This document shows positions 1 through 14,106 of a stretch of 17,968 nt of DNA, in pieces. Source of the stretch: a virus (taxonomy: Duplodnaviria; Heunggongvirae; Uroviricota; Caudoviricetes); IMG/VR virus record IMGVR_UViG_2872185964_000004; one strand, 5' to 3'. Each line of letters begins with the position of its first letter. The stretch's first letter is position 1. A program made the translations under genes and the position numbers. The notes under the pieces are model-generated. The model ran no database searches, was not told the DNA's origin, and saw nothing but the letters and a program-made list of their open reading frames with translations.

Positions 1-1461
1 ATGAAAAAATTACTGCGTCTTTTTTTCCCGCTCTCGCTGCGGGTACGTTTTCTGTTGGCAACGGCTGCGGTAGTACTGGTGCTTTCGCTTGCCTACGGAA
101 TGGTCGCGCTGATCGGTTATAGCGTCAGTTTCGATAAAACTACGTTTCGGCTGTTACGTGGCGAGAGCAATCTGTTCTATACCCTTGCGAAGTGGGAAAA
201 CAATAAGTTGCATGTCGAGTTACCCGAAAATATCGACAAGCAAAGCCCCACCATGACGCTAATTTATGATGAGAACGGGCAGCTTTTATGGGCGCAACGT
301 GACGTGCCCTGGCTGATGAAGATGATCCAGCCTGACTGGCTGAAATCGAATGGTTTTCATGAAATTGAAGCGGATGTTAACGATACCAGCCTCTTGCTGA
401 GTGGAGATCATTCGATACAGCAACAGTTGCAGGAAGTGCGGGAAGATGATGACGACGCGGAGATGACCCACTCGGTGGCAGTAAACGTCTACCCGGCAAC
501 ATCGCGGATGCCAAAATTAACCATTGTGGTGGTGGATACCATTCCGGTGGAGCTAAAAAGTTCCTATATGGTCTGGAGCTGGTTTATCTATGTGCTCTCA
601 GCCAATCTGCTGTTAGTGATCCCGCTGCTGTGGGTCGCCGCCTGGTGGAGTTTACGCCCCATCGAAGCCCTGGCAAAAGAAGTCCGCGAACTGGAAGAAC
701 ATAACCGCGAATTGCTCAATCCAGCCACAACGCGAGAACTGACCAGTCTGGTACGAAACCTGAACCGATTGTTAAAAAGTGAACGCGAACGTTACGACAA
801 ATACCGTACGACGCTCACCGACCTGACCCATAGTCTGAAAACGCCACTGGCGGTGCTGCAAAGTACGCTGCGTTCTCTGCGTAGTGAAAAGATGAGCGTC
901 AGTGATGCTGAGCCGGTAATGCTGGAGCAAATCAGCCGCATTTCACAGCAAATTGGCTACTACCTGCATCGTGCCAGTATGCGCGGCGGGACATTGCTCA
1001 GCCGCGAGCTGCATCCGGTCGCCCCACTGCTGGACAATCTCACCTCAGCGCTGAACAAAGTGTATCAACGCAAAGGGGTCAATATCTCTCTCGATATTTC
1101 GCCAGAGATCAGCTTTGTCGGTGAGCAGAACGATTTTGTCGAGGTGATGGGCAACGTGCTGGATAATGCCTGTAAATATTGCCTCGAGTTTGTCGAAATT
1201 TCTGCAAGGCAAACCGACGAGCATCTCTATATTGTGGTCGAGGATGATGGCCCCGGTATTCCATTAAGCAAGCGAGAGGTCATTTTCGACCGTGGTCAAC
1301 GGGTTGATACTTTACGCCCTGGGCAAGGTGTAGGGCTGGCGGTAGCCCGCGAAATCACCGAGCAATATGAGGGTAAAATCGTCGCCGGAGAGAGCATGCT
1401 GGGCGGTGCGCGGATGGAGGTGATTTTTGGTCGCCAGCATTCTGCGCCGAAAGATGAATAA
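1..1461 (+). CDS. phoQ: Two-component sensor histidine kinase PhoQ
   Basis: 486-aa ORF with N-terminal TM segment, periplasmic acidic patch (EDDDDAEM), second TM, H-box ([10 protein letters not shown]) and HATPase motifs ([21 protein letters not shown]). Matches E. coli PhoQ as I recall it; ATG start at position 1. Confidence 0.97.
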
Positions 1462-1539
1462 ATATGTCCTTTTATCACCATATCAAGACAAACCATTGAT
1501 TTAATTAAATAATCTTCACTGCAAAAAGTGCCAAAAATC

Positions 1540-2035
1540 GCAAATTGACTACACCATTAACTACACCGTTCGGTGCACCGTATGAAACAACGTGGAACAA
1601 ATAGACACAAGAAATATACAGGCGGATCATCTTTCCAGGGGAAGCGCACCAATTCATGAGGGGCGTTAATGTCTATATGGGGATCCCCACCTACCGGAAT
1701 TTTTTTCCGGTTAAACGTTAATCAGGCTGGTGGGCTTTACCTGTTCGGTAGGTGTTATGATTATCGTAATACCTTTCCCCAATGGGGTAAAAGCATCAAC
1801 CGTAACGAAAGTCGTTATGGTTGCCACTGATACCCCAAATTTGGGTATCACGAGTAAGCCCCAAAATCTGGGTGTTACTCTTACTACCCAAACTACGGGT
1901 AGTTTCCGTAGTTTCATGGTCGAGTTGCAGATCTGCAACTCCCCCATTAACCACAGGCGAATTTCCGCCTTCGGTCATTCCTTAATCATCTGCGTAATCA
2001 TAATGATTATTCAGCAAGCGCAATTTTGCGCTTTG
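1540..2035. other. Palindrome-dense non-coding tract between phoQ and the packaging operon (candidate att/pac/ori or structured RNA region)
   Basis: Direct repeats ACTACACC (1548-1555, 1560-1567). Perfect or near-perfect dyads: CGGTGCACCG 1571-1580, TGGGGATCCCCA 1678-1689, CCGGAA-ttttt-TTCCGG 1694-1710, TAACGA-aag-TCGTTA 1803-1817, CCCAAATTTGGG 1834-1845, AAACTACGG-7nt-CCGTAGTTT 1890-1914, GAGTTGCAGATCTGCAACTC 1922-1941, AGGCG-6nt-CGCCT 1955-1970, TAATCAT-a-ATGATTA 1995-2009, AAGCGCAA-tt-TTGCGCTT 2016-2033. The ORFs in the track here overlap each other on both strands and look non-coding. Confidence 0.6.
1584..1613 (+). repeat. Three 10-bp-phased GAACAA-type repeats (site A); shares the 15-mer AACAACGTGGAACAA with site B
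   Basis: GAAACAAcgt / GGAACAAata / GACACAAgaa at an exact 10-bp period; 1586-1600 is identical to 9045-9059. Confidence 0.55.
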
Positions 2036-5516: not shown

Positions 5517-5851
5517 TTTTCCGCGCCCTCACGACAAAGAATTTCAAGGCGTGTCCTGGCGGCATCCGGCAGCGGTTGCCCGATGATATTCAGTACACGC
5601 CCCGCCAGCGGCCCCGTATTGACCTTTATCCGGCTGGTGGCGTTGATGTCCTTCCGGTACCGTATCCAGATCCTTACGGTACCAATCGCCAGCTCTGCAC
5701 CCGATGAAATGGCCTCCTTGCTGCTGATCATGTTCACGCTTGCCCAGAGTGTGTGACCGTCCTCCCACGTTTCGAGTATTTCGCCGGTTATATCCCTGGT
5801 CTGTTTCAGGGTCTGAATCGTTACCCTGTCACGCAGTCGCCCTATGTTCAT
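5513..5851 (-). CDS. Head-closure / head-tail adaptor protein
   Basis: 112 aa starting MNIGRLRDRVTIQ (head-closure family N-terminal signature); its ATG overlaps the portal stop (ATGA at 5848-5851). Confidence 0.72.
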   Translation of the reverse strand: MNIGRLRDRVTIQTLKQTRDITGEILETWEDGHTLWASVNMISSKEAISSGAELAIGTVRIWIRYRKDINATSRIKVNTGPLAGRVLNIIGQPLPDAARTRLEILCREGAEK

Positions 5852-7671: not shown

Positions 7672-8829
7672 TTAATCGTCGTCCTGTGGCAGTTCCAGAA
7701 TCTTGATCGCGTTCGAATCCACCACGCCACCGCCTAAATATTTCTGCGCGAAAATTTTGATGAAGCCCGGCTCTGTGAGGTTGTCCGGTCTGGTGCGAAC
7801 ACCTGTTTCGTGATCAACAATGTAGTAACCGCGTTTGAAGTCACCCAGGGCAATAACGTTATCCGGCATAAACTCCAGATATTCGACCGGAAGGCCCAGC
7901 AACGTATCAGGATCACCCGCCTGTAAACGGTCACGCCAGATGTAATCACCGTTCGCGTTCTTCACCTTCTGGAGTTTTGCCGCCGTCGTGGAGTTAACCA
8001 CCCAGACCGCGTTTTTGCGGTATTTTTTACGTAATGCAAATTTCAGGTCGATCAGCGGGTCCGCAGATGTCCACGCCAGAGATTCGGAAGGTTTAATTAC
8101 CTGCAACGTACCAAAATCACGCTCTTTGTCGTTCTTCTCTGCACGGGGTACGGATAAAAAGCCTTTTGCTTTTTTGTCACCGTCGCCCACAACCAGATCG
8201 CTTTCTTCGGTTTCCGTGAAGGTGTCGCCAATCTCGCCCGTCAGCCATGAAAGGATGTCCACATCGGAAAAATCCACAATTTCCTGCGTGGTGCGCGGGT
8301 ACGCATAGACCGGATACAGCTTAATGCTCACCTCGTTAATCTGCGGGGTGCTGGTCTGTTCGCGTGCCTTACCCTCTTCACCGTGGTTAACGGTCGCACC
8401 GCCAGCGGAAACAAGCTGCTTAAACTCGTTGCTGCTGATTTTCTTCACGGTACAGATGCGGCGCATGGTGGATTCATCCGTCAGCATTCGCATGATTTCG
8501 GTGTTCAGTTCGGGGATAACGGTATAACCACCATCAGCGGGAACGCCTGTACTCAATGCGCGGGTTTCACCTGTCAGAATGTAGTGACGTAGTTCGGCGG
8601 GGTCAGTGGTCTGGCTGTTTTTGCCTGGTTTACTGCGCTCTTCGTCAGCAACGGCCTCAAGGCGGGAGATGTCTTTATCGAGTGATTCAGCTTTAGCGCG
8701 TAATTCGTCAAATTTTGCGCCCTCAGCATCGTTAAGGCTGCGGTTTTCTTTTTCCGCGTTCTCCAGCATGTCGCGCATCTGATTTTTAATGGCGGTTTTC
8801 TGCTGGCGTAATTCGATTATTCTCGGCAT
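7672..8829 (-). CDS. Major capsid protein (HK97 fold) with N-terminal coiled-coil delta/scaffold-like domain
   Basis: 385 aa from the ATG at 8829 (MPRIIELRQQKTAIKNQMRDM...); charged helical N-terminal ~100 aa followed by a capsid-like body; the track ORF begins 16 codons earlier at a non-ATG start. Confidence 0.88.
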   Translation of the reverse strand: MPRIIELRQQKTAIKNQMRDMLENAEKENRSLNDAEGAKFDELRAKAESLDKDISRLEAVADEERSKPGKNSQTTDPAELRHYILTGETRALSTGVPADGGYTVIPELNTEIMRMLTDESTMRRICTVKKISSNEFKQLVSAGGATVNHGEEGKAREQTSTPQINEVSIKLYPVYAYPRTTQEIVDFSDVDILSWLTGEIGDTFTETEESDLVVGDGDKKAKGFLSVPRAEKNDKERDFGTLQVIKPSESLAWTSADPLIDLKFALRKKYRKNAVWVVNSTTAAKLQKVKNANGDYIWRDRLQAGDPDTLLGLPVEYLEFMPDNVIALGDFKRGYYIVDHETGVRTRPDNLTEPGFIKIFAQKYLGGGVVDSNAIKILELPQDDD

Positions 8830-9040
8830 AAAAAAAGTCCTGAAGTTAAGTAAGGAACTCCAGGACGCGGCAAACACTCAACCGTTTTTCATAAGGAAAT
8901 CAGCAATCGCACCGATCGTTTTCCCGCCTGGTAATGAATATTGGCGAGCACATTAACAGGCGGGAAAGTGGCCCCAGCGTCCTGGCACCACGGGCGAGAA
9001 TAATCATGATTCAGTTCGGGTAAAATATGCCGATCCGGTC

Positions 9041-9070
9041 AGCGAACAACGTGGAACAACCACGAACAAA
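9041..9070 (+). repeat. Three 10-bp-phased GAACAA repeats (site B) in the promoter region of the head operon
   Basis: GAACAA at 9044-9049, 9054-9059 and 9064-9069; 15-mer AACAACGTGGAACAA at 9045-9059 is identical to site A; lies between the terminator and the capsid gene. Confidence 0.55.
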
Positions 9071-9086
9071 TAATTTACAAAACATG

Positions 9087-9109
9087 ACAAAAAGCCGGAT
9101 TGCTCCGGC
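9087..9109 (-). terminator. Rho-independent terminator closing the replication/early operon
   Basis: On the minus strand: GCCGGA-GCAA-TCCGGC (perfect 6-bp stem, GNRA-like loop) immediately followed by TTTTTGT. Confidence 0.65.
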
Positions 9110-9116
9110 TGTGTGA

Positions 9117-9389
9117 TTATCTGTCCTGGTAATTTCGCCATATTTCATCACCAGCACCATCCATACCCATTTCGGCATAAGTGCGATCGACCGCCTTTTT
9201 CAGGTCTCCGTAATTATCCGGCGGCTCCGGTGGCCTCTGTGCCTTCCTGGAACATTCCAGCCGTCGCATCGTGATGTGATGCCGTTCCTTGTCTGTCTCC
9301 ACCAGTTGCATGACTTCACCCCATCGCGCCGACGCTCTCCGGTAAAAGCCTTTCGCCTCCAGTTCTTCCGCTATGCGGTCATGTACCAT
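9117..9389 (-). CDS. Hypothetical small protein (90 aa), possible regulator
   Basis: ATG at 9389 with GAGGGG Shine-Dalgarno (the track ORF starts at an upstream GTG); charged helical protein. Confidence 0.5.
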   Translation of the reverse strand: MVHDRIAEELEAKGFYRRASARWGEVMQLVETDKERHHITMRRLECSRKAQRPPEPPDNYGDLKKAVDRTYAEMGMDGAGDEIWRNYQDR

Positions 9390-9401
9390 CGTCCCCACCC
9401 C

Positions 9402-9812
9402 TCAGAACGGAATATCATCACCGTAAGGGTCATCGCCTCCCGCTGGTGGCTGATTACCCTGTGTGCCTGTGGTCTTGCGTCGGCTCCCACCAGGACGTGC
9501 CGCACGGGCACTGATTACGCTGTCTGCAATAACCTGATAACCCTGCCGCGTTTCCCCGTTCTGTCCGGTCCACTGGCTGACCTGCATCGTGCCGGATACG
9601 CTGGCAACGTCGCCTTTTTGATGTTTAGCCAGGAAGTCGGCCTGCTTACCAAATGCGATGACCGATAGCCATAACGTCGCCTGTCCATCCTGTGCCTGGC
9701 TGCATGGCAGCGATACCGCCATACGCGCCAGCGTCATCGGTGTACCCTTGCTGGTCTGTTTTACCTGCGGGTCGTCCACCAGCCGCCCGTAAGCTGCAAT
9801 TTGTGCTGTCAT
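9402..9812 (-). CDS. ssb: Single-stranded DNA-binding protein
   Basis: 136 aa; OB-fold-like N-terminus, Gly/Pro/Gln-rich linker and the diagnostic acidic C-terminal tail ...DDPYGDDIPF; ATG at 9812 with GAGGTGG Shine-Dalgarno. Confidence 0.85.
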   Translation of the reverse strand: MTAQIAAYGRLVDDPQVKQTSKGTPMTLARMAVSLPCSQAQDGQATLWLSVIAFGKQADFLAKHQKGDVASVSGTMQVSQWTGQNGETRQGYQVIADSVISARAARPGGSRRKTTGTQGNQPPAGGDDPYGDDIPF

Positions 9813-9821
9813 ATTGCCACC

Positions 9822-10112
9822 TCAGTGAAGCGATCCGGCGTTGTTCTTTTTCATCTCTTCCATCATTTTTTCAGTGAGCATTACGCACTGAAAACCCATG
9901 TTTTTGATGTCTACGGGTTTCATGCCTTTGTCAGTGGATATCACAGGCAGAATATCCTGATACACATCGCGGTCAGGGTAACTAAGCACACAAAGCGCCC
10001 ATGATGCCACGGGTGAGGATCCTTCGTCTGTTTCAACCCACCAGCCTGGTGTAGCTGCGCTTATTTGCTGAATCGTGATCCGTCCGTTGTGCTTGTAAAG
10101 TTTTTTCACCAA
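9822..10112 (-). CDS. Hypothetical protein (~96 aa)
   Basis: ORF with a non-ATG (TTG/GTG) start near 10109-10112; no motifs recognised. A separate 31-codon ATG ORF overlaps the upstream stop in another frame. Confidence 0.4.
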   Translation of the reverse strand: MVKKLYKHNGRITIQQISAATPGWWVETDEGSSPVASWALCVLSYPDRDVYQDILPVISTDKGMKPVDIKNMGFQCVMLTEKMMEEMKKNNAGSLH

Positions 10113-10124
10113 ATTTTGGTTCGC

Positions 10125-10376
10125 TCATGATTCCAACTCTCCGGTTTTAACGTTGATTGTTGTTACCTGTTCCGCTTCGGCAATCTCCCGTTCTGTCAGC
10201 GTGGCAAAGTTTGCCGCCGCCGTGGTCATGAATGCGCTTATCAGGTCGGGATGTTCCTTCGCGTATCCTTCCCGCGTGTGGCGGTCTATCATTCTGATTG
10301 CCACCTTTAAGGTGTGCTCAGTCATGTCTAACGCTTTATATTTTGGCTCTGTTCTGTCTCTGCGTTTTTGGGTCAT
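10125..10376 (-). CDS. Hypothetical protein (83 aa)
   Basis: ATG at 10376 with GAGAGG Shine-Dalgarno; the track ORF begins upstream inside the iteron region. Confidence 0.45.
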   Translation of the reverse strand: MTQKRRDRTEPKYKALDMTEHTLKVAIRMIDRHTREGYAKEHPDLISAFMTTAAANFATLTEREIAEAEQVTTINVKTGELES

Positions 10377-12576: not shown

Positions 12577-12585
12577 GATATTCAG
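12577..12585. repeat. 9-bp target-site duplication GATATTCAG (left copy)
   Basis: Identical 9-mer directly abuts the outer IS1 ends at 12577-12585 and 14098-14106. Confidence 0.85.
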
Positions 12586-13329
12586 GGTGATGCTGCCAAC
12601 TTACTGATTTAGTGTATGATGGTGTTTTTGAGGTGCTCCAGTGGCTTCTGTTTCTATCAGCTGTCCCTCCTGTTCAGCTACTGACGGGGTGGTGCGTAAC
12701 GGCAAAAGCACTGCCGGACATCAGCGCTATCTCTGCTCTCACTGCCGTAAAACATGGCAACTGCAGTTCACTTACACCGCTTCTCAACCCGGTACGCACC
12801 AGAAAATTATTGATATGGCCATGAATGGCGTTGGATGCCGGGCAACTGCACGCATTATGGGCGTTAGCCTCAACACGATTTTACGTCACTTAAAAAACTC
12901 AGGCCGCAGTCGGTAACCTCGCGCATACAGCCGGGCAGTGACGTCATCGTCTGCGCGGAAATGGACGAACAGTGGGGATACGTCGGGGCTAAATCGCGCC
13001 AGCGCTGGCTGTTTTACGCGTATGACAGGCTCCGGAAGACGGTTGTTGCGCACGTATTCGGTGAACGCACTATGGCGACGCTGGGGCGTCTTATGAGCTT
13101 GCTGTCACCCTTTGACGTGGTGATATGGATGACGGATGGCTGGCCACTGTATGAATCCCGCCTGAAGGGAAAGCTGCACGTAATCAGCAAGCGATATACG
13201 CAGCGAATTGAGCGGCATAACCTGAATCTGAGGCAGCACCTGGCACGGCTGGGACGGAAGTCGCTGTCGTTCTCAAAATCGGTGGAGCTGCATGACAAAG
13301 TCATCGGGCATTATCTGAACATAAAACAC
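12586..13329 (+). mobile_element. IS1 copy 1 (744 bp, lacks the right terminal inverted repeat)
   Basis: Begins with the IS1 left inverted repeat GGTGATGCTGCCAACTTACTGAT; contains insA, the A6C frameshift motif (12892-12898) and the insB frame; ends at ...AACATAAAACAC and is directly abutted by copy 2. Confidence 0.93.
12641..12916 (+). CDS. insA: IS1 InsA (copy 1)
   Basis: 91-aa product [22 protein letters not shown]...[11 protein letters not shown] start. Confidence 0.93.
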
Positions 13330-13356
13330 GGTAATGCTGCCAACTTACTGATTTAG
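12868..13356 (+). CDS. insB: IS1 insB reading frame (copy 1), expressed as the InsAB' transposase by -1 frameshift
   Basis: insB frame with transposase motifs. An in-frame TAG at 12865-12867 lies upstream of the frameshift site, so the fusion is unaffected. The C-terminus is altered (...[12 protein letters not shown]) because the frame runs into copy 2. Confidence 0.8.
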
Positions 13357-13384
13357 TGTATGATGGTGATTTTAAGGTGCTTGC

Positions 13385-13660
13385 GTGGCTTCCATTTCCA
13401 TCAGATGTCCTTCCTGCTCCGCTACTGAAGGCGTGGTGCGTAACGGCAAAAGCACTGCCGGACATCAGCGCTATCTCTGCTCTCATTGCCGTAAAACATG
13501 GCAACTACAGTTCACTTACACCGCCTCTCAGCCCGGTACGCACCAGAAAATCATTGATATGGCCATGAATGGCGTCGGATGTCGCGCCAGTGCACGCATT
13601 ATGGGCGTTGGCCTCAACACGGTTTTACGTCACTTAAAAAACTCAGGCCGCAGTCGGTAA
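13385..13660 (+). CDS. insA: IS1 InsA (copy 2)
   Basis: 91-aa product [22 protein letters not shown]...; A6C frameshift motif at 13636-13642. Confidence 0.93.
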
Positions 13661-14082
13661 CCTCGCGCATACAACCGGGCAGTGATGTGATTGTCTGCGC
13701 TGAAATGGACGAACAGTGGGGCTACGTCGGTGCTAAATCACGTCAGCGCTGGCTGTTTTACGCGTATGACAGGATACGGAGGAGGGTTGTGGCGCACGTC
13801 TTCGGTGAACGCACTCTGGCCACACTGGAGCGTCTTCTGAGCCTGCTGTCGGCCTTTGAGGTCGTGGTATGGATGACGGATGGCTGGCCGCTGTATGAAT
13901 CACGCCTGAAGGGAAAGCTGCACGTTATCAGCAAGCGTTACACTCAGCGCATTGAGCGACATAATCTGAATCTGAGACAACATCTGGCAAGGCTGGGACG
14001 GAAGTCACTGTCGTTCTCAAAATCGGTGGAGCTGCATGACAAGGTCATCGGGCATTATCTGAACATAAAACACTATCAGTAA
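13579..14082 (+). CDS. insB: IS1 InsB (copy 2)
   Basis: 167-aa ORF ending ...HYLNIKHYQ, the canonical InsB C-terminus. Confidence 0.9.
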
Positions 14083-14097
14083 GTTGGAGTCATTACC

Positions 14098-14106
14098 GAT
14101 ATTCAG
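14098..14106. repeat. 9-bp target-site duplication GATATTCAG (right copy)
   Basis: Matches 12577-12585 exactly. Confidence 0.85.

Follow-up and report, generated by a model that had tools for sequence, protein, structure and literature searches.

Excisionases that double as transcription factors on phased direct repeats are well known from P2, 186 and P4. P2 Cox occupies direct-repeat arrays with a spacing of one helical turn, at promoters as well as at att, and activates the satellite promoter P4 PLL, while P4 Vis is reported to regulate the late promoters PLL and Psid, the second of which drives the capsid-size operon. Phage 186 Apl is likewise a small protein that acts on one-turn direct repeats at att and at promoters, and direct repeats one helical turn apart are the form taken by recombination directionality factor sites (PMC7498355). 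Apl and Cox each couple excision to a transcriptional switch, and both mainly repress early or lysogenic promoters, binding over or between them. Vis is an AlpA homologue with a role in excision, to which the AlpA variants of PICIs are just remotely related (PMC6092414). The late promoters of P4 depend chiefly on Ogr/Delta, and P4 has no capsid gene of its own.

The winged helices TorI (KplE1/HK620), lambda Xis, RdfS and BldC also oligomerise on direct repeats. TorI occupies five cooperative attL sites beside the IntS sites (PMC3509656), and RdfS oligomerises on DNA and regulates transcription as well (PMC11963761). These proteins have been characterised mainly at att, with no described array before a structural-gene operon. 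A different protein named AlpA, from Pseudomonas aeruginosa, is a Q-like antiterminator that acts at a promoter with an intrinsic terminator downstream (PMC9371919, PMC7969949). It recognises a single site, GGGACG, between -35 and -10, contacting DNA at residues 128-142, while a segment at its N terminus makes a ring within the RNA exit channel (PMC9371919).

Capsid-forming PICIs (cf-PICIs) are widespread as satellites; they produce capsids of their own and take just the tails of phages. Their capsids reportedly form even when no helper is present (10.1101/2025.02.11.637232), and PICI induction is described as helper-dependent (PMC6092414). In the literature examined, we found no description of how the packaging operon of a cf-PICI is switched on.

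A Phased Repeat Array Upstream of the Capsid Gene

The stretch of DNA analyzed here (the window, 17,968 nucleotides) is a cf-PICI with phoQ as its insertion site. It carries int, alpA, repA, SSB and perC together with an HK97-type packaging module, whose operon runs capsid, protease, portal, head completion, connector, HNH, TerS and TerL. The minus strand is the coding strand of the capsid, perC and alpA region.

1460-1469, plus strand: AAATATGTCC, which overlaps the stop codon of phoQ and is probably the att identity block (compare family D13)
7672-8829, minus strand: major capsid gene (ATG 8829-8827), heading the packaging operon
9044-9069, minus strand: three exact copies of TTGTTC with a period of 10 bp, proposed to be AlpA boxes
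9070-9080, minus strand: TTGTAAATTAT, the region's most conserved block across diverged cf-PICI lineages
9117-9398, minus strand: perC-family gene (PF06069, E = 3e-43), the final gene ahead of the terminator
16191-16379, minus strand: alpA, encoding a 62-aa excisionase-type winged-helix protein, the proposed array binder

On the plus strand the units read GAACAA, at 9044-9049, 9054-9059 and 9064-9069. The first-pass annotation had recorded three such repeats with an exact period of 10 bp, some 215-240 bp ahead of the capsid start codon, and a 15-mer of the array that recurs at the left end; all of this was confirmed, with the capsid ATG at 8829 and exact copies of the 15-mer, AACAACGTGGAACAA, at 9045-9059 and 1586-1600. 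A degenerate unit, TTGTAA (9080-9075), had been overlooked. It is conserved as part of TTGTAAATTAT and lies 11 bp ahead of unit 1, such that the array comprises three exact units plus TTGTAA, that is, at least three direct repeats one helical turn apart.

By our own estimate, a single 15-mer shared within 18 kb is not very improbable by chance. The array pattern is improbable by chance, i.e., non-random, with an exact hexamer recurring at +10 and +20 found at 3 positions in the window versus 0 in 300 dinucleotide shuffles, and the 15-mer with up to three mismatches found at 9 sites versus 0.66 expected, a count reached in 0 of 200 shuffles. A scan of viral contigs for TTGTTC-N4-TTGTTC-N4-TTGTTC returned more than 120 stretches, among which PICI contexts alone are informative; the bare pattern is not diagnostic, because many matches are unrelated phage or giant-virus repeats. 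Inspection of TTGTAAATTAT and its flanks by eye gave no match to IHF or P2 Ogr/Delta-type sites.

The position of the capsid-upstream array is conserved across cf-PICI lineages. Close relatives yielded 28 distinct upstream sequences, and in every one of them, as in an O157:H7 cf-PICI and in FORC_042, the distance between array and capsid ATG is fixed. The array is kept despite an Int of 42-48% identity, an AlpA of 46-52% identity and a DUF927 replicase, and in the islands that combine diverged Int and AlpA with DUF927 the sequences of terminator and leader differ. Classical PICIs with the same AlpA (CFT073, O157) have no array before the morphogenesis operon.

This conservation bears on whether the repeats are replication iterons, forming a second cis replication region like P4 crr. 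P4 iterons, TGTTCACC, have the TGTTC core in common with the array, the repeats are phased, direct and beside an AT-rich stretch near SSB and replication genes, and one island (L086) has TGTTCACC iterons immediately upstream of the block. We consider this reading extremely improbable, since the same array accompanies four replicases (RepA/AAA_25, the CFT073-type primase, a 48% identical primase and DUF927), and distinct iterons that are candidates for the ori follow the replicase genes on their downstream side: GGTAGA in CFT073, TCTACC in L065 and TGTTCACC in L086. The rep-ori region of EcCICFT073 is a functional replicon (PMC6092414). The array does not track replicase type, and a replication-origin or crr identity was rejected.

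A Terminator, a Putative Weak Promoter and a Structured Leader

Further elements surround the array between perC and the capsid start codon, with the leader made up of three hairpins.

9093-9110, minus strand: intrinsic terminator stem-loop AGCCGGA-GCAA-TCCGGCT after perC, T-tract 9092-9078
9019-9025, minus strand: putative weak -35, either TTTACC (9024-9019, 16-nt spacer) or TTTTAC (9025-9020, 17-nt spacer)
8997-9002, minus strand: putative -10, TATTCT, 5 nt ahead of the conserved 5' hairpin
8968-8991, minus strand: leader hairpin 1, with a GACG loop, located at the 5' end predicted for the mRNA
8920-8967, minus strand: leader hairpin 2, a long stem
8830-8866, minus strand: leader hairpin 3 (11 bp) followed by U7, ending at the capsid ATG (8829-8827)

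The hairpin and T-tract previously described as closing the replication/SSB operon are present, with the location corrected to 9110-9093 on the minus strand, after perC. A 7-bp stem with five G-C pairs and a GCAA loop is followed by TTTTTGT, as in an intrinsic terminator, and the fold energy is -16.2 kcal/mol (z = -4.8 versus shuffles). The element begins 7 nt past the perC stop (9117), and the operon that it ends is therefore ...repA-SSB-perC. Its position is kept in relatives while its sequence is not: two islands (L003 and L004) have unrelated hairpins with T7 in the same place, and O157 islands have two copies, one on each side of an inserted gene. These observations support insulation of the region from upstream transcription.

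Downstream of the array, positional homology points to a weak sigma-70 promoter, TTTACC-16-TATTCT. A sigma-70 scan of 8600-9500 called no promoter, because this site matches 8/12 and falls under the threshold; the scan tool did call the homologous site of L003, TTTACA-16-TATGTT. The spacing of -35, -10 and the start of hairpin 1 is identical in the lineages compared. With the transcription start predicted at about 8990, the exact units would lie at about -79/-74, -69/-64 and -59/-54, and with TTGTAA included the array would span about -54 to -90. The first-pass annotation had proposed an activator-dependent late promoter here; the terminator and the conserved position of a weak promoter downstream of the repeats agree with this, while dependence on an activator is the part that we infer.

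The structured leader had escaped the first reading. The segment CCAGGACGC of hairpin 1 is complementary to GCGTCCTGG, which makes up most of the 5' arm of hairpin 3. The structure of hairpin 2 is kept while its stem sequence differs in almost all lineages, giving strong covariation. Hairpin 3 is terminator-like and holds the AGGA Shine-Dalgarno sequence within its 3' arm, and so placed over the capsid ribosome-binding site may form a second layer of control. Scanning the entire window against Rfam with gathering thresholds returned no matches, and the leader thus does not correspond to a described RNA family.

Control could in principle reside in the leader entirely, with no dedicated binder for the repeats, which would be a relic or spacer next to a constitutive or weak promoter; hairpin 3 would then terminate transcription or hide the ribosome-binding site unless pairing with hairpin 1, or a factor, opens it. 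The conserved leader architecture, the covariation of hairpin 2 and the complementarity between hairpin 1 and the 5' arm of hairpin 3 are as expected of such a mechanism, and the units nearest the promoter in the L049/L086 lineage have become degenerate, with a terminator hairpin overlapping them. Against a relic, however, three exact units at exact spacing are kept in lineages with replaced flanks, and the same type of array is repeated at three other functional sites of the island. Control by the leader and control by an activator can also coexist, and we regard a binder-free array as improbable.

The Motif Recurs in the att Arms and Upstream of alpA

Two of the other sites fall within the window, and close relatives have a fourth array in the other att arm, beyond the window.

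1548-1567, plus strand: doubled 11-bp motif ACTACACCATTAACTACACC, 17 nt away from the left array and proposed to hold arm-type sites of the integrase
1585-1610, plus strand: left att-arm array AAACAA-cgtg-GAACAA-atag-ACACAA, which includes the shared 15-mer
16658-16713, plus strand: six TTGTTC-like units at a 10-bp period, between int and alpA

The left-end copy of the 15-mer is an att-arm (excision complex) site beside the doubled motif, not a promoter. The other arm has the same layout of array and doubled motif in FORC_042 and CFT073. The gap between array and doubled motif is 17 nt in three of the arms examined and 7 nt in a variant arm, a difference of one helical turn. The array motif thereby adjoins candidate arm-type sites of the integrase, and the two kinds of element behave differently across islands: the doubled motif is different in every integrase type examined (five Int types, five motifs), whereas the array motif is constant. 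Between L004 and L086, for instance, AlpA is 98% identical and Int 59% identical, and the doubled motifs differ. In a study that left its binder open between Int and AlpA, the doubled motif amounts to four half-sites, a separate one for each subunit of an Int tetramer (PMC10111431).

The N-terminal domain of Int had been named as a possible binder of the repeats, in which case they would be arm-type sites and the capsid-upstream copy a secondary Int site. Int does have an Arm-DNA-bind_3 domain, and two of the arrays lie within att arms. We think this very unlikely because it is the doubled 11-bp motif, with its one half-site per tetramer subunit, that tracks integrase type. The array motif stays unchanged across the five Int types and also occurs outside the att arms, the capsid-upstream array lying 7.5 kb and the alpA-upstream array 1.3 kb from the nearest island end. 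Arrays upstream of alpA likewise persist with integrases 27-98% identical to reference integrases.

The six-unit array upstream of alpA was also missed in the first reading. It lies 280-335 bp before the alpA ATG, in an orientation inverted relative to alpA, and is about 200 bp or more from the sole sigma-70-like sites found by scan. Its motif and period are kept in a relative with flanks of just 78% identity, while the spacers have changed; L053/L177-type islands have just a degenerate version of it. The int-alpA region of the window is near-identical to that of EcCICFT073, where AlpA is an activator of its own promoter and expression from Pint is unchanged by AlpA (PMC6092414). The Pint result counts against AlpA as the binder, as the array is present upstream of int. 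In other species, where 54 AlpA loci were compared, arrays of phased TGTTC/GTTCA occur at 0.31/kb in the interval -600 to -50 of alpA versus 0.025/kb outside it, an enrichment that holds over the same 27-98% range of integrase identity, with a clear array at just 9 of the 54 loci, several of them near-identical to one another.

AlpA as the Candidate Binder

The island encodes a small winged-helix protein of its own, AlpA, which matches PF05930 (E = 3e-18). Its structural model (pLDDT 88.5) has the GIsul2 excisionase as best match (TM 0.79-0.85) and also matches RdfS, TorI, BldC and MerR-type wings; a literature search on PDB entry 8C3T returned nothing relevant. AlpA had already been suggested as a candidate activator, and with an excisionase-type fold and the motif present upstream of alpA and in the att arms it is the best candidate binder. 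Mutation of alpA abolishes induction and transfer of EcCIEDL933 (10.1101/2022.09.08.507074). A published alpA-overexpression strain cannot serve as helper-free evidence, because it also contains a helper prophage.

Among the known systems, the arrangement proposed for AlpA resembles that of Apl and Cox in that one protein would couple excision to a transcriptional switch. Unlike the sites of Apl and Cox, the capsid-upstream array sits upstream of -35, where activators sit, and before a capsid/packaging operon, and the sequence family of AlpA is different. Vis, like AlpA here, is an AlpA-family protein of a phage satellite; the island differs from P4 in having its own capsid gene and in P4's chief reliance on Ogr/Delta. 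The likeness to TorI, Xis, RdfS and BldC is one of proteins and fold class, and in these systems the array before structural genes has no counterpart. With P. aeruginosa AlpA the window protein shares its name and helix-turn-helix DNA binding, and the capsid leader also has a terminator-like hairpin. The window AlpA, however, is at 62 aa essentially a DNA-binding fold alone, with multiple sites upstream of -35. Antitermination of the P. aeruginosa AlpA/Q type was rejected on this protein architecture, a winged helix only (compare PMC9371919).

Several observations given above weigh against AlpA boxes: the sub-threshold promoter score in the window, the missing array before the morphogenesis operon of classical PICIs, the degenerate alpA-upstream array of L053/L177-type islands, the inverted orientation of that array in the window and its distance from sigma-70-like sites, and the small share of AlpA loci with a clear array. 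A comparison of AlpA types also leaves room for another binder. TTGTTC capsid-promoter arrays accompany three AlpA types that are 46-59% identical. Upstream of L4-type alpA genes the arrays read TGTTCAT, and upstream of window-type genes they read TTGTTC(C/G), with the TGTTC core common to both; a strict covariation of AlpA type and motif was expected and not found, the covariation being weak. A motif this constant fits either a conserved TGTTC specificity of AlpA or a binder other than AlpA. OmpR/PhoB-family regulators bind direct repeats phased at 10-11 bp, such as the TorR tor box CTGTTCATAT and the TGTTA repeats of ArcA. A host response regulator of this family, or a late factor of the helper phage, could be what turns on the capsid promoter: the constant core is what one would expect of a host factor common to the islands, Klebsiella-type alpA-upstream units (cTGTTCATca) appear close to the tor box, and helper-dependent induction of PICIs (PMC6092414) would suit a helper factor. 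We consider such a binder unlikely. The att-arm arrays are phased with sites that vary by integrase type, which is the standard place of an element-encoded directionality factor, and the arrays are enriched beside alpA genes in many genera. The helper-phage factor raised previously is less likely as an obligatory activator, given the reported helper-independent formation of cf-PICI capsids (10.1101/2025.02.11.637232).

Two other island genes were considered. PerC was rejected as array binder, since L003 and L004 lack it, many islands have an extra small gene separating perC from the array, and the array is unchanged. A gene of 82 aa that often lies just upstream is absent from the window and was for this reason rejected as an essential activator.

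On balance we lean toward the array being a set of AlpA boxes that make an insulated late promoter dependent on AlpA. AlpA monomers would line up head-to-tail along TTGTAA and the three TTGTTC units, with a single monomer at each helical turn. The terminator at 9110-9093 would halt transcription from the alpA-rep-SSB-perC operon, so that, in this proposal, the capsid and packaging genes are made only from the array promoter, which would fire only after AlpA has accumulated. The array at 16658-16713 would serve autoactivation of AlpA, and those in both att arms would serve excision, with the same AlpA and the same motif. Were AlpA to act at all arrays, one small protein would couple induction, excision and capsid production.

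If this is correct, TGTTC every helical turn would be the first candidate recognition motif for a PICI AlpA, and the regulon would map to four sites: the two att arms, the promoter region of alpA and the promoter of the capsid gene. It would also explain the exchange of capsid modules among islands with different integrases and replicases, and set the array apart from the doubled att-arm motif discussed in PMC10111431. The regulatory design is a familiar one; its mapping in this island is new and would extend the existing picture without overturning it.

A broader and more doubtful possibility, which we put forward tentatively, is that the terminator, TTGTAAATTAT, the phased TGTTC boxes, the weak promoter and the three-hairpin leader constitute a portable AlpA-responsive late cassette that moves with the HK97-type capsid module. 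Such a cassette would work in any PICI backbone because AlpAs of 46-59% identity would share a specificity for TGTTC. At the RNA level the leader would provide a second checkpoint, of a kind not described so far, in which hairpin 1 can compete with a hairpin that ends transcription or covers the ribosome-binding site. Excision, amplification of AlpA itself and capsid production would then all be controlled by a single 62-aa protein.

Island architecture

The coding strand of the window is the minus strand, and its gene order is that of a capsid-forming phage-inducible chromosomal island (PICI; cf-PICI when capsid-forming), as in 10.1101/2022.09.08.507074:

17968-16739, minus: P4-type integrase gene (int), first from the right end
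16379-16191, minus: alpA, after int
following alpA, minus: Bro-N-like gene, then a 333-aa ORF
12585-14098, plus: two tandem IS1 copies after the 333-aa ORF, the first without a right inverted repeat
after the IS1 copies, minus: DUF4222 gene, then RepA/AAA_25 helicase gene
9812-9402, minus: SSB gene
9398-9117, minus: PerC-family gene (perC, E = 3e-43), the final gene ahead of the terminator
9110-9093, minus: terminator stem-loop AGCCGGA-GCAA-TCCGGCT, 7 nt past the perC stop
directly after the stem-loop, minus: TTTTTGTCATGTT
9080-9070, minus: TTGTAAATTAT, between TTTTTGTCATGTT and the array
9069-9044, minus: TTGTTCgtggTTGTTCcacgTTGTTC, the three-unit array
8829-2491, minus: HK97-type module (capsid, protease, portal, head completion, connector, HNH, TerS, TerL)
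1-1461: phoQ, flanking the left end of the island

The insertion site is phoQ/roxA, also used by the classical PICI EcCICFT073, with which the island shares its left end and int-alpA region. A probable att identity block, AAATATGTCC (window 1460-1469; 27446-27469 in the compared contig L006), overlaps the phoQ stop codon, and integration would therefore restore the phoQ 3' end. In E. coli FORC_042, the closest complete relative, the copy of the queried 621-bp region (8800-9420) is 99.8% identical and the island has no IS1 elements. The IS1 pair splits the early operon, separating the alpA-proximal genes from the replication genes, and is probably polar on expression of the latter in this island copy. 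An effect on the LEE virulence island is reported for some PerC homologues of PICIs (PMC11773190, PMC6092414).

A terminator and phased array precede the capsid operon

The first-pass annotation described a strong terminator followed by phased GAACAA repeats (TTGTTC on the minus strand), and read the region as an activator-dependent late promoter. The stem-loop is a good intrinsic terminator (-16.2 kcal/mol, z -4.8), the three units are exact with a period of exactly 10 bp, and the 15-mer AACAACGTGGAACAA is found exactly at 9045-9059 and 1586-1600. Relaxed matches to this 15-mer number 9 in the window against 0.66 expected, and an exact hexamer repeated at +10 and +20 occurs at three positions in the window and in none of 300 shuffles. 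Given the exact units and spacing, the excess of matches and the shuffle result, the observation stands, and the terminator and repeats are real and functional-looking.

Lineages were aligned from a TTGTAA anchor, and three landmarks hold their spacing while the intervening sequence varies. The first is a hexamer resembling a -35 element: TTTACC for the window, TTTACA for the E. coli cf-PICI L003 and TTTTCT for L049 and L086 of the Klebsiella-type lineage. It is followed after 16 nt by a -10-like hexamer (TATTCT, TATGTT, TATCTT), and 5 nt further on a conserved hairpin begins. The promoter scan calls the L003 site TTTACA-16-TATGTT; the window site scores 8/12, under the scan threshold, which is consistent with a weak, activator-dependent promoter. 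With a predicted start near 8990, the units would fall at -59/-54, -69/-64 and -79/-74, and TTGTAA at -90/-85, positions of a kind that activators occupy and repressors usually do not. The Klebsiella-type lineage (L048, L049, L054, L086, L090) has degenerate promoter-proximal units (TTGTAyTCAT, GTTTACyCAT), with the terminator hairpin placed between units and -10.

A helper-phage factor is a less likely sole activator, since tail-less capsids are reported to form in cf-PICIs when no helper is present (10.1101/2025.02.11.637232). In that study the strain overexpressing alpA still carries a helper prophage and is therefore not decisive on this question.

The array is conserved with the capsid module

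By comparison of upstream sequences, the array belongs to the capsid module. Among IMG/VR contigs with a capsid more than 95% identical, the units lie ~223-248 bp before the capsid ATG in all 28 distinct upstream sequences, and the region upstream of the terminator is variable. Two E. coli cf-PICIs, L003 (inside a prophage terL gene) and L004 (between gcd and hpt), carry the block TTTTGTAAATTATTTGTTCGTGGTTGTTCCAGGTTGTTC. Their integrases are 42-48% and their AlpA-like proteins 46-52% identical; they have a DUF927 replicase and no PerC, and neither the terminator hairpin nor the leader resembles the window's in sequence. CFT073 and O157 FRIK2069, classical PICIs with window-type int and alpA, lack such an array before the morphogenesis operon.

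The O157:H7 cf-PICI L239 retains the array behind an inserted small gene. In the stretch 560-960 of L239 this 74-aa gene lies between perC and the array, flanked by two near-identical AGCCGGAG(A/C)AATCCGGCT terminators, and looks like a cassette inserted via terminator duplication. The same slot holds weakly related small genes in many cf-PICIs (~43-48% identical to an 82-aa protein of L003) and none in the window. Recurrent TTGTTCC arrays also occur in other contexts in unrelated viral contigs (L120, L122, L124, L128 and many others), for example TCTCGAAATCTAG-TTGTTCCCG-TTGTTCCCAG-TTGTTCCGAG-TTGTTCC followed by an inverted copy; the TCTCGAAATCTAG-type contigs gave zero matches to the island query proteins.

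Two other roles for the array were rejected. One was binding by PerC, since islands without PerC still keep the array; PerC appears dispensable for array conservation. The other was origin iterons: the array is unchanged whichever of four replicase types is present, and downstream of the replicase genes there are other candidate iterons, namely GGTAGA or TCTACC (CFT073, L065) and P4-type TGTTCACC (L086). In L086 a TGTTCACC/GGTGAACA repeat cluster (10040-10300) lies between the primase gene and the capsid promoter; it has the P4 type I iteron sequence and is therefore probably the origin of replication. The host of L086, K. pneumoniae ATCC 13883, is apparently the strain whose island is named KpCIDSM30104 in 10.1101/2025.02.11.637232. 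The EcCICFT073 rep-ori region has been shown to be a functional replicon (PMC6092414).

A larger array lies upstream of alpA

The first-pass annotation overlooked the window's largest array of this motif:

16658-16713, plus: six TTGTTC-like units at a 10-bp period, inverted relative to alpA (TTGTTC cat tTTGTTC ctt gTTGTTC gtc gTTGTGT ctc gTTGTTT cac gTTGTCC)

It starts 26 nt past the int stop, 280-335 bp upstream of the alpA ATG and at least ~200 bp from the sigma-70-like sites called by the scan. The array is conserved in CFT073, an O157 PICI and Shigella; an O157 relative with only 78% identity in the int-alpA region retains the units and has altered spacers. The int-alpA region of the window is near-identical to that of EcCICFT073, whose AlpA switches on the promoter of its own gene and leaves Pint unaltered (PMC6092414).

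Across 54 AlpA loci, with each species represented by one genome, the density of phased TGTTC/GTTCA arrays is 0.31 per kb at -600 to -50 of alpA versus 0.025 per kb elsewhere, and the arrays accompany integrases 27-98% identical to reference integrases. A clear array was missing in 45 of the 54 loci, and several of the nine positive loci are near-identical, leaving fewer independent observations. Klebsiella, Enterobacter and related islands carry more long 10-bp arrays upstream of alpA (L086 5472-5544; L089 ~5550-5660), with other motifs: CATTCAACAG x4-6, ACGACACGTA x4, CACGTCACCT x5 and CACGTCATTG x6.

AlpA as the candidate binder

AlpA matches Pfam Phage_AlpA, and its nearest solved sequence relative is 8c3t. 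A single-sequence AlphaFold model (pLDDT 88.5) has a helix-turn-helix, a beta wing and a helix; its best structural match is the excisionase of the GIsul2 transposon (TM 0.79-0.85, rmsd 1.3 Å), ahead of MerR-type wings, RdfS excisionase, TorI and BldC. Regulators of the excisionase type recognise direct repeats spaced by one helical turn (PMC7498355), TorI has five cooperative sites in attL (PMC3509656), and RdfS oligomerises on DNA and is a transcription regulator as well (PMC11963761). The geometry of the array is thus as expected for AlpA's class. The 62-aa protein comprises a DNA-binding fold only, and antitermination of the Pseudomonas AlpA type was rejected; that protein contacts DNA through residues 128-142, rings the RNA exit channel with its N-terminal segment and uses a single GGGACG site between -35 and -10 (PMC9371919).

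TTGTTC arrays at capsid promoters accompany three AlpA groups: the window type, a type 57-59% identical to it (L053, L177, L204, L206), and the L3/L4 types (L003, L004, L137). AlpA type and motif show no strict covariation. Window-type units read TTGTTC(C/G) and L4-type units TGTTCAT. The recognition helix is partly conserved, as sRsxR(Y/W)xxE, and a shared TGTTC core is the simplest reconciliation of diverged AlpA types with one motif. A host factor binding the arrays in place of AlpA would give the same picture. Further points against AlpA are the scarcity of clear arrays among the 54 AlpA loci, the inverted orientation of the alpA-upstream array and its distance from sigma-70-like sites, and the unaltered Pint in EcCICFT073. 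We nevertheless judge the repeats most likely to be an AlpA operator array that would make the insulated capsid-operon promoter AlpA-dependent; our confidence is only a little better than even, because covariation is weak and binding and transcription are predicted. The same motif would serve AlpA at alpA and in both att arms, copies that fit two published AlpA-family roles, autoactivation and excision. P2 Cox, 186 Apl and P4 Vis work in the way proposed here for AlpA; the element and the sequence family are new.

Arrays and doubled motifs in the att arms

CFT073 and FORC_042 carry the same module in both att arms: ACTACACCATTAACTACACC, 17 nt, and three (G/A)AACAA-like units. The left end of the window is one such arm, and the second lies just past its right edge:

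1548-1567: doubled 11-bp motif ACTACACCATTAACTACACC (also 16640-16663 in L238 and 27305-27327 in L006)
1585-1610: array

In variant islands the doubled motif is separated by 7 nt from three perfect TTGTTC units, and a third island type has TTGTTT, TTGTTC, TTGTTC, 17 nt and a different doubled motif, TGTGTGGTCAGTTGTGTGGTCAG. The 7-nt and 17-nt spacings preserve helical phase. The doubled motif differs in each integrase type examined:

Doubled motifs by integrase type
window-type integrase: ACTACACC...
L177: TGTGTGGTCAG...
L003 and L050: TGTGTATTGC...
L004: GTATATCACT...
L086: CTGTATAAACA...

L004 and L086 have AlpA proteins 98% identical, integrases 59% identical and different doubled motifs. 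The doubled motif was noted earlier, its binder left open between Int arm domains and AlpA, whose relatives act as recombination directionality factors (PMC10111431). Its variation with integrase assigns it to Int, probably as arm-type sites, and leaves the phased TGTTC arrays for another protein.

A structured capsid leader RNA

Downstream of the predicted start (window 8991-8827, minus strand), seven lineages fold into the same three-part leader:

8968-8991, minus: hairpin 1, 5'-terminal, with a GACG loop
8920-8967, minus: hairpin 2, long, directly after hairpin 1
8830-8866, minus: hairpin 3, immediately ahead of the start codon

Almost every lineage has its own sequence in the basal stem of hairpin 2 (UUUCCCGCCUG/CAGGCGGGAAA, GCCGCCUGAC/GUCGGGCGGC, UGUCCACCCGG/CCGGGUGGACA, GGCCGUCAG/CUGACGGCC and others), with strong covariation over the seven. 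The leader has no Rfam match. Window-type hairpin 3 is terminator-like, an 11-bp stem and then U7, with an AGGA Shine-Dalgarno in its 3' arm. Hairpin 1 contains CCAGGACGC, the complement of GCGUCCUGG, which makes up most of hairpin 3's 5' arm. The leader could therefore serve as an RNA switch and give a second layer of control over capsid expression, at the RNA level. In L053 this alternative pairing of hairpins 1 and 3 is the one adopted by the minimum-energy fold.
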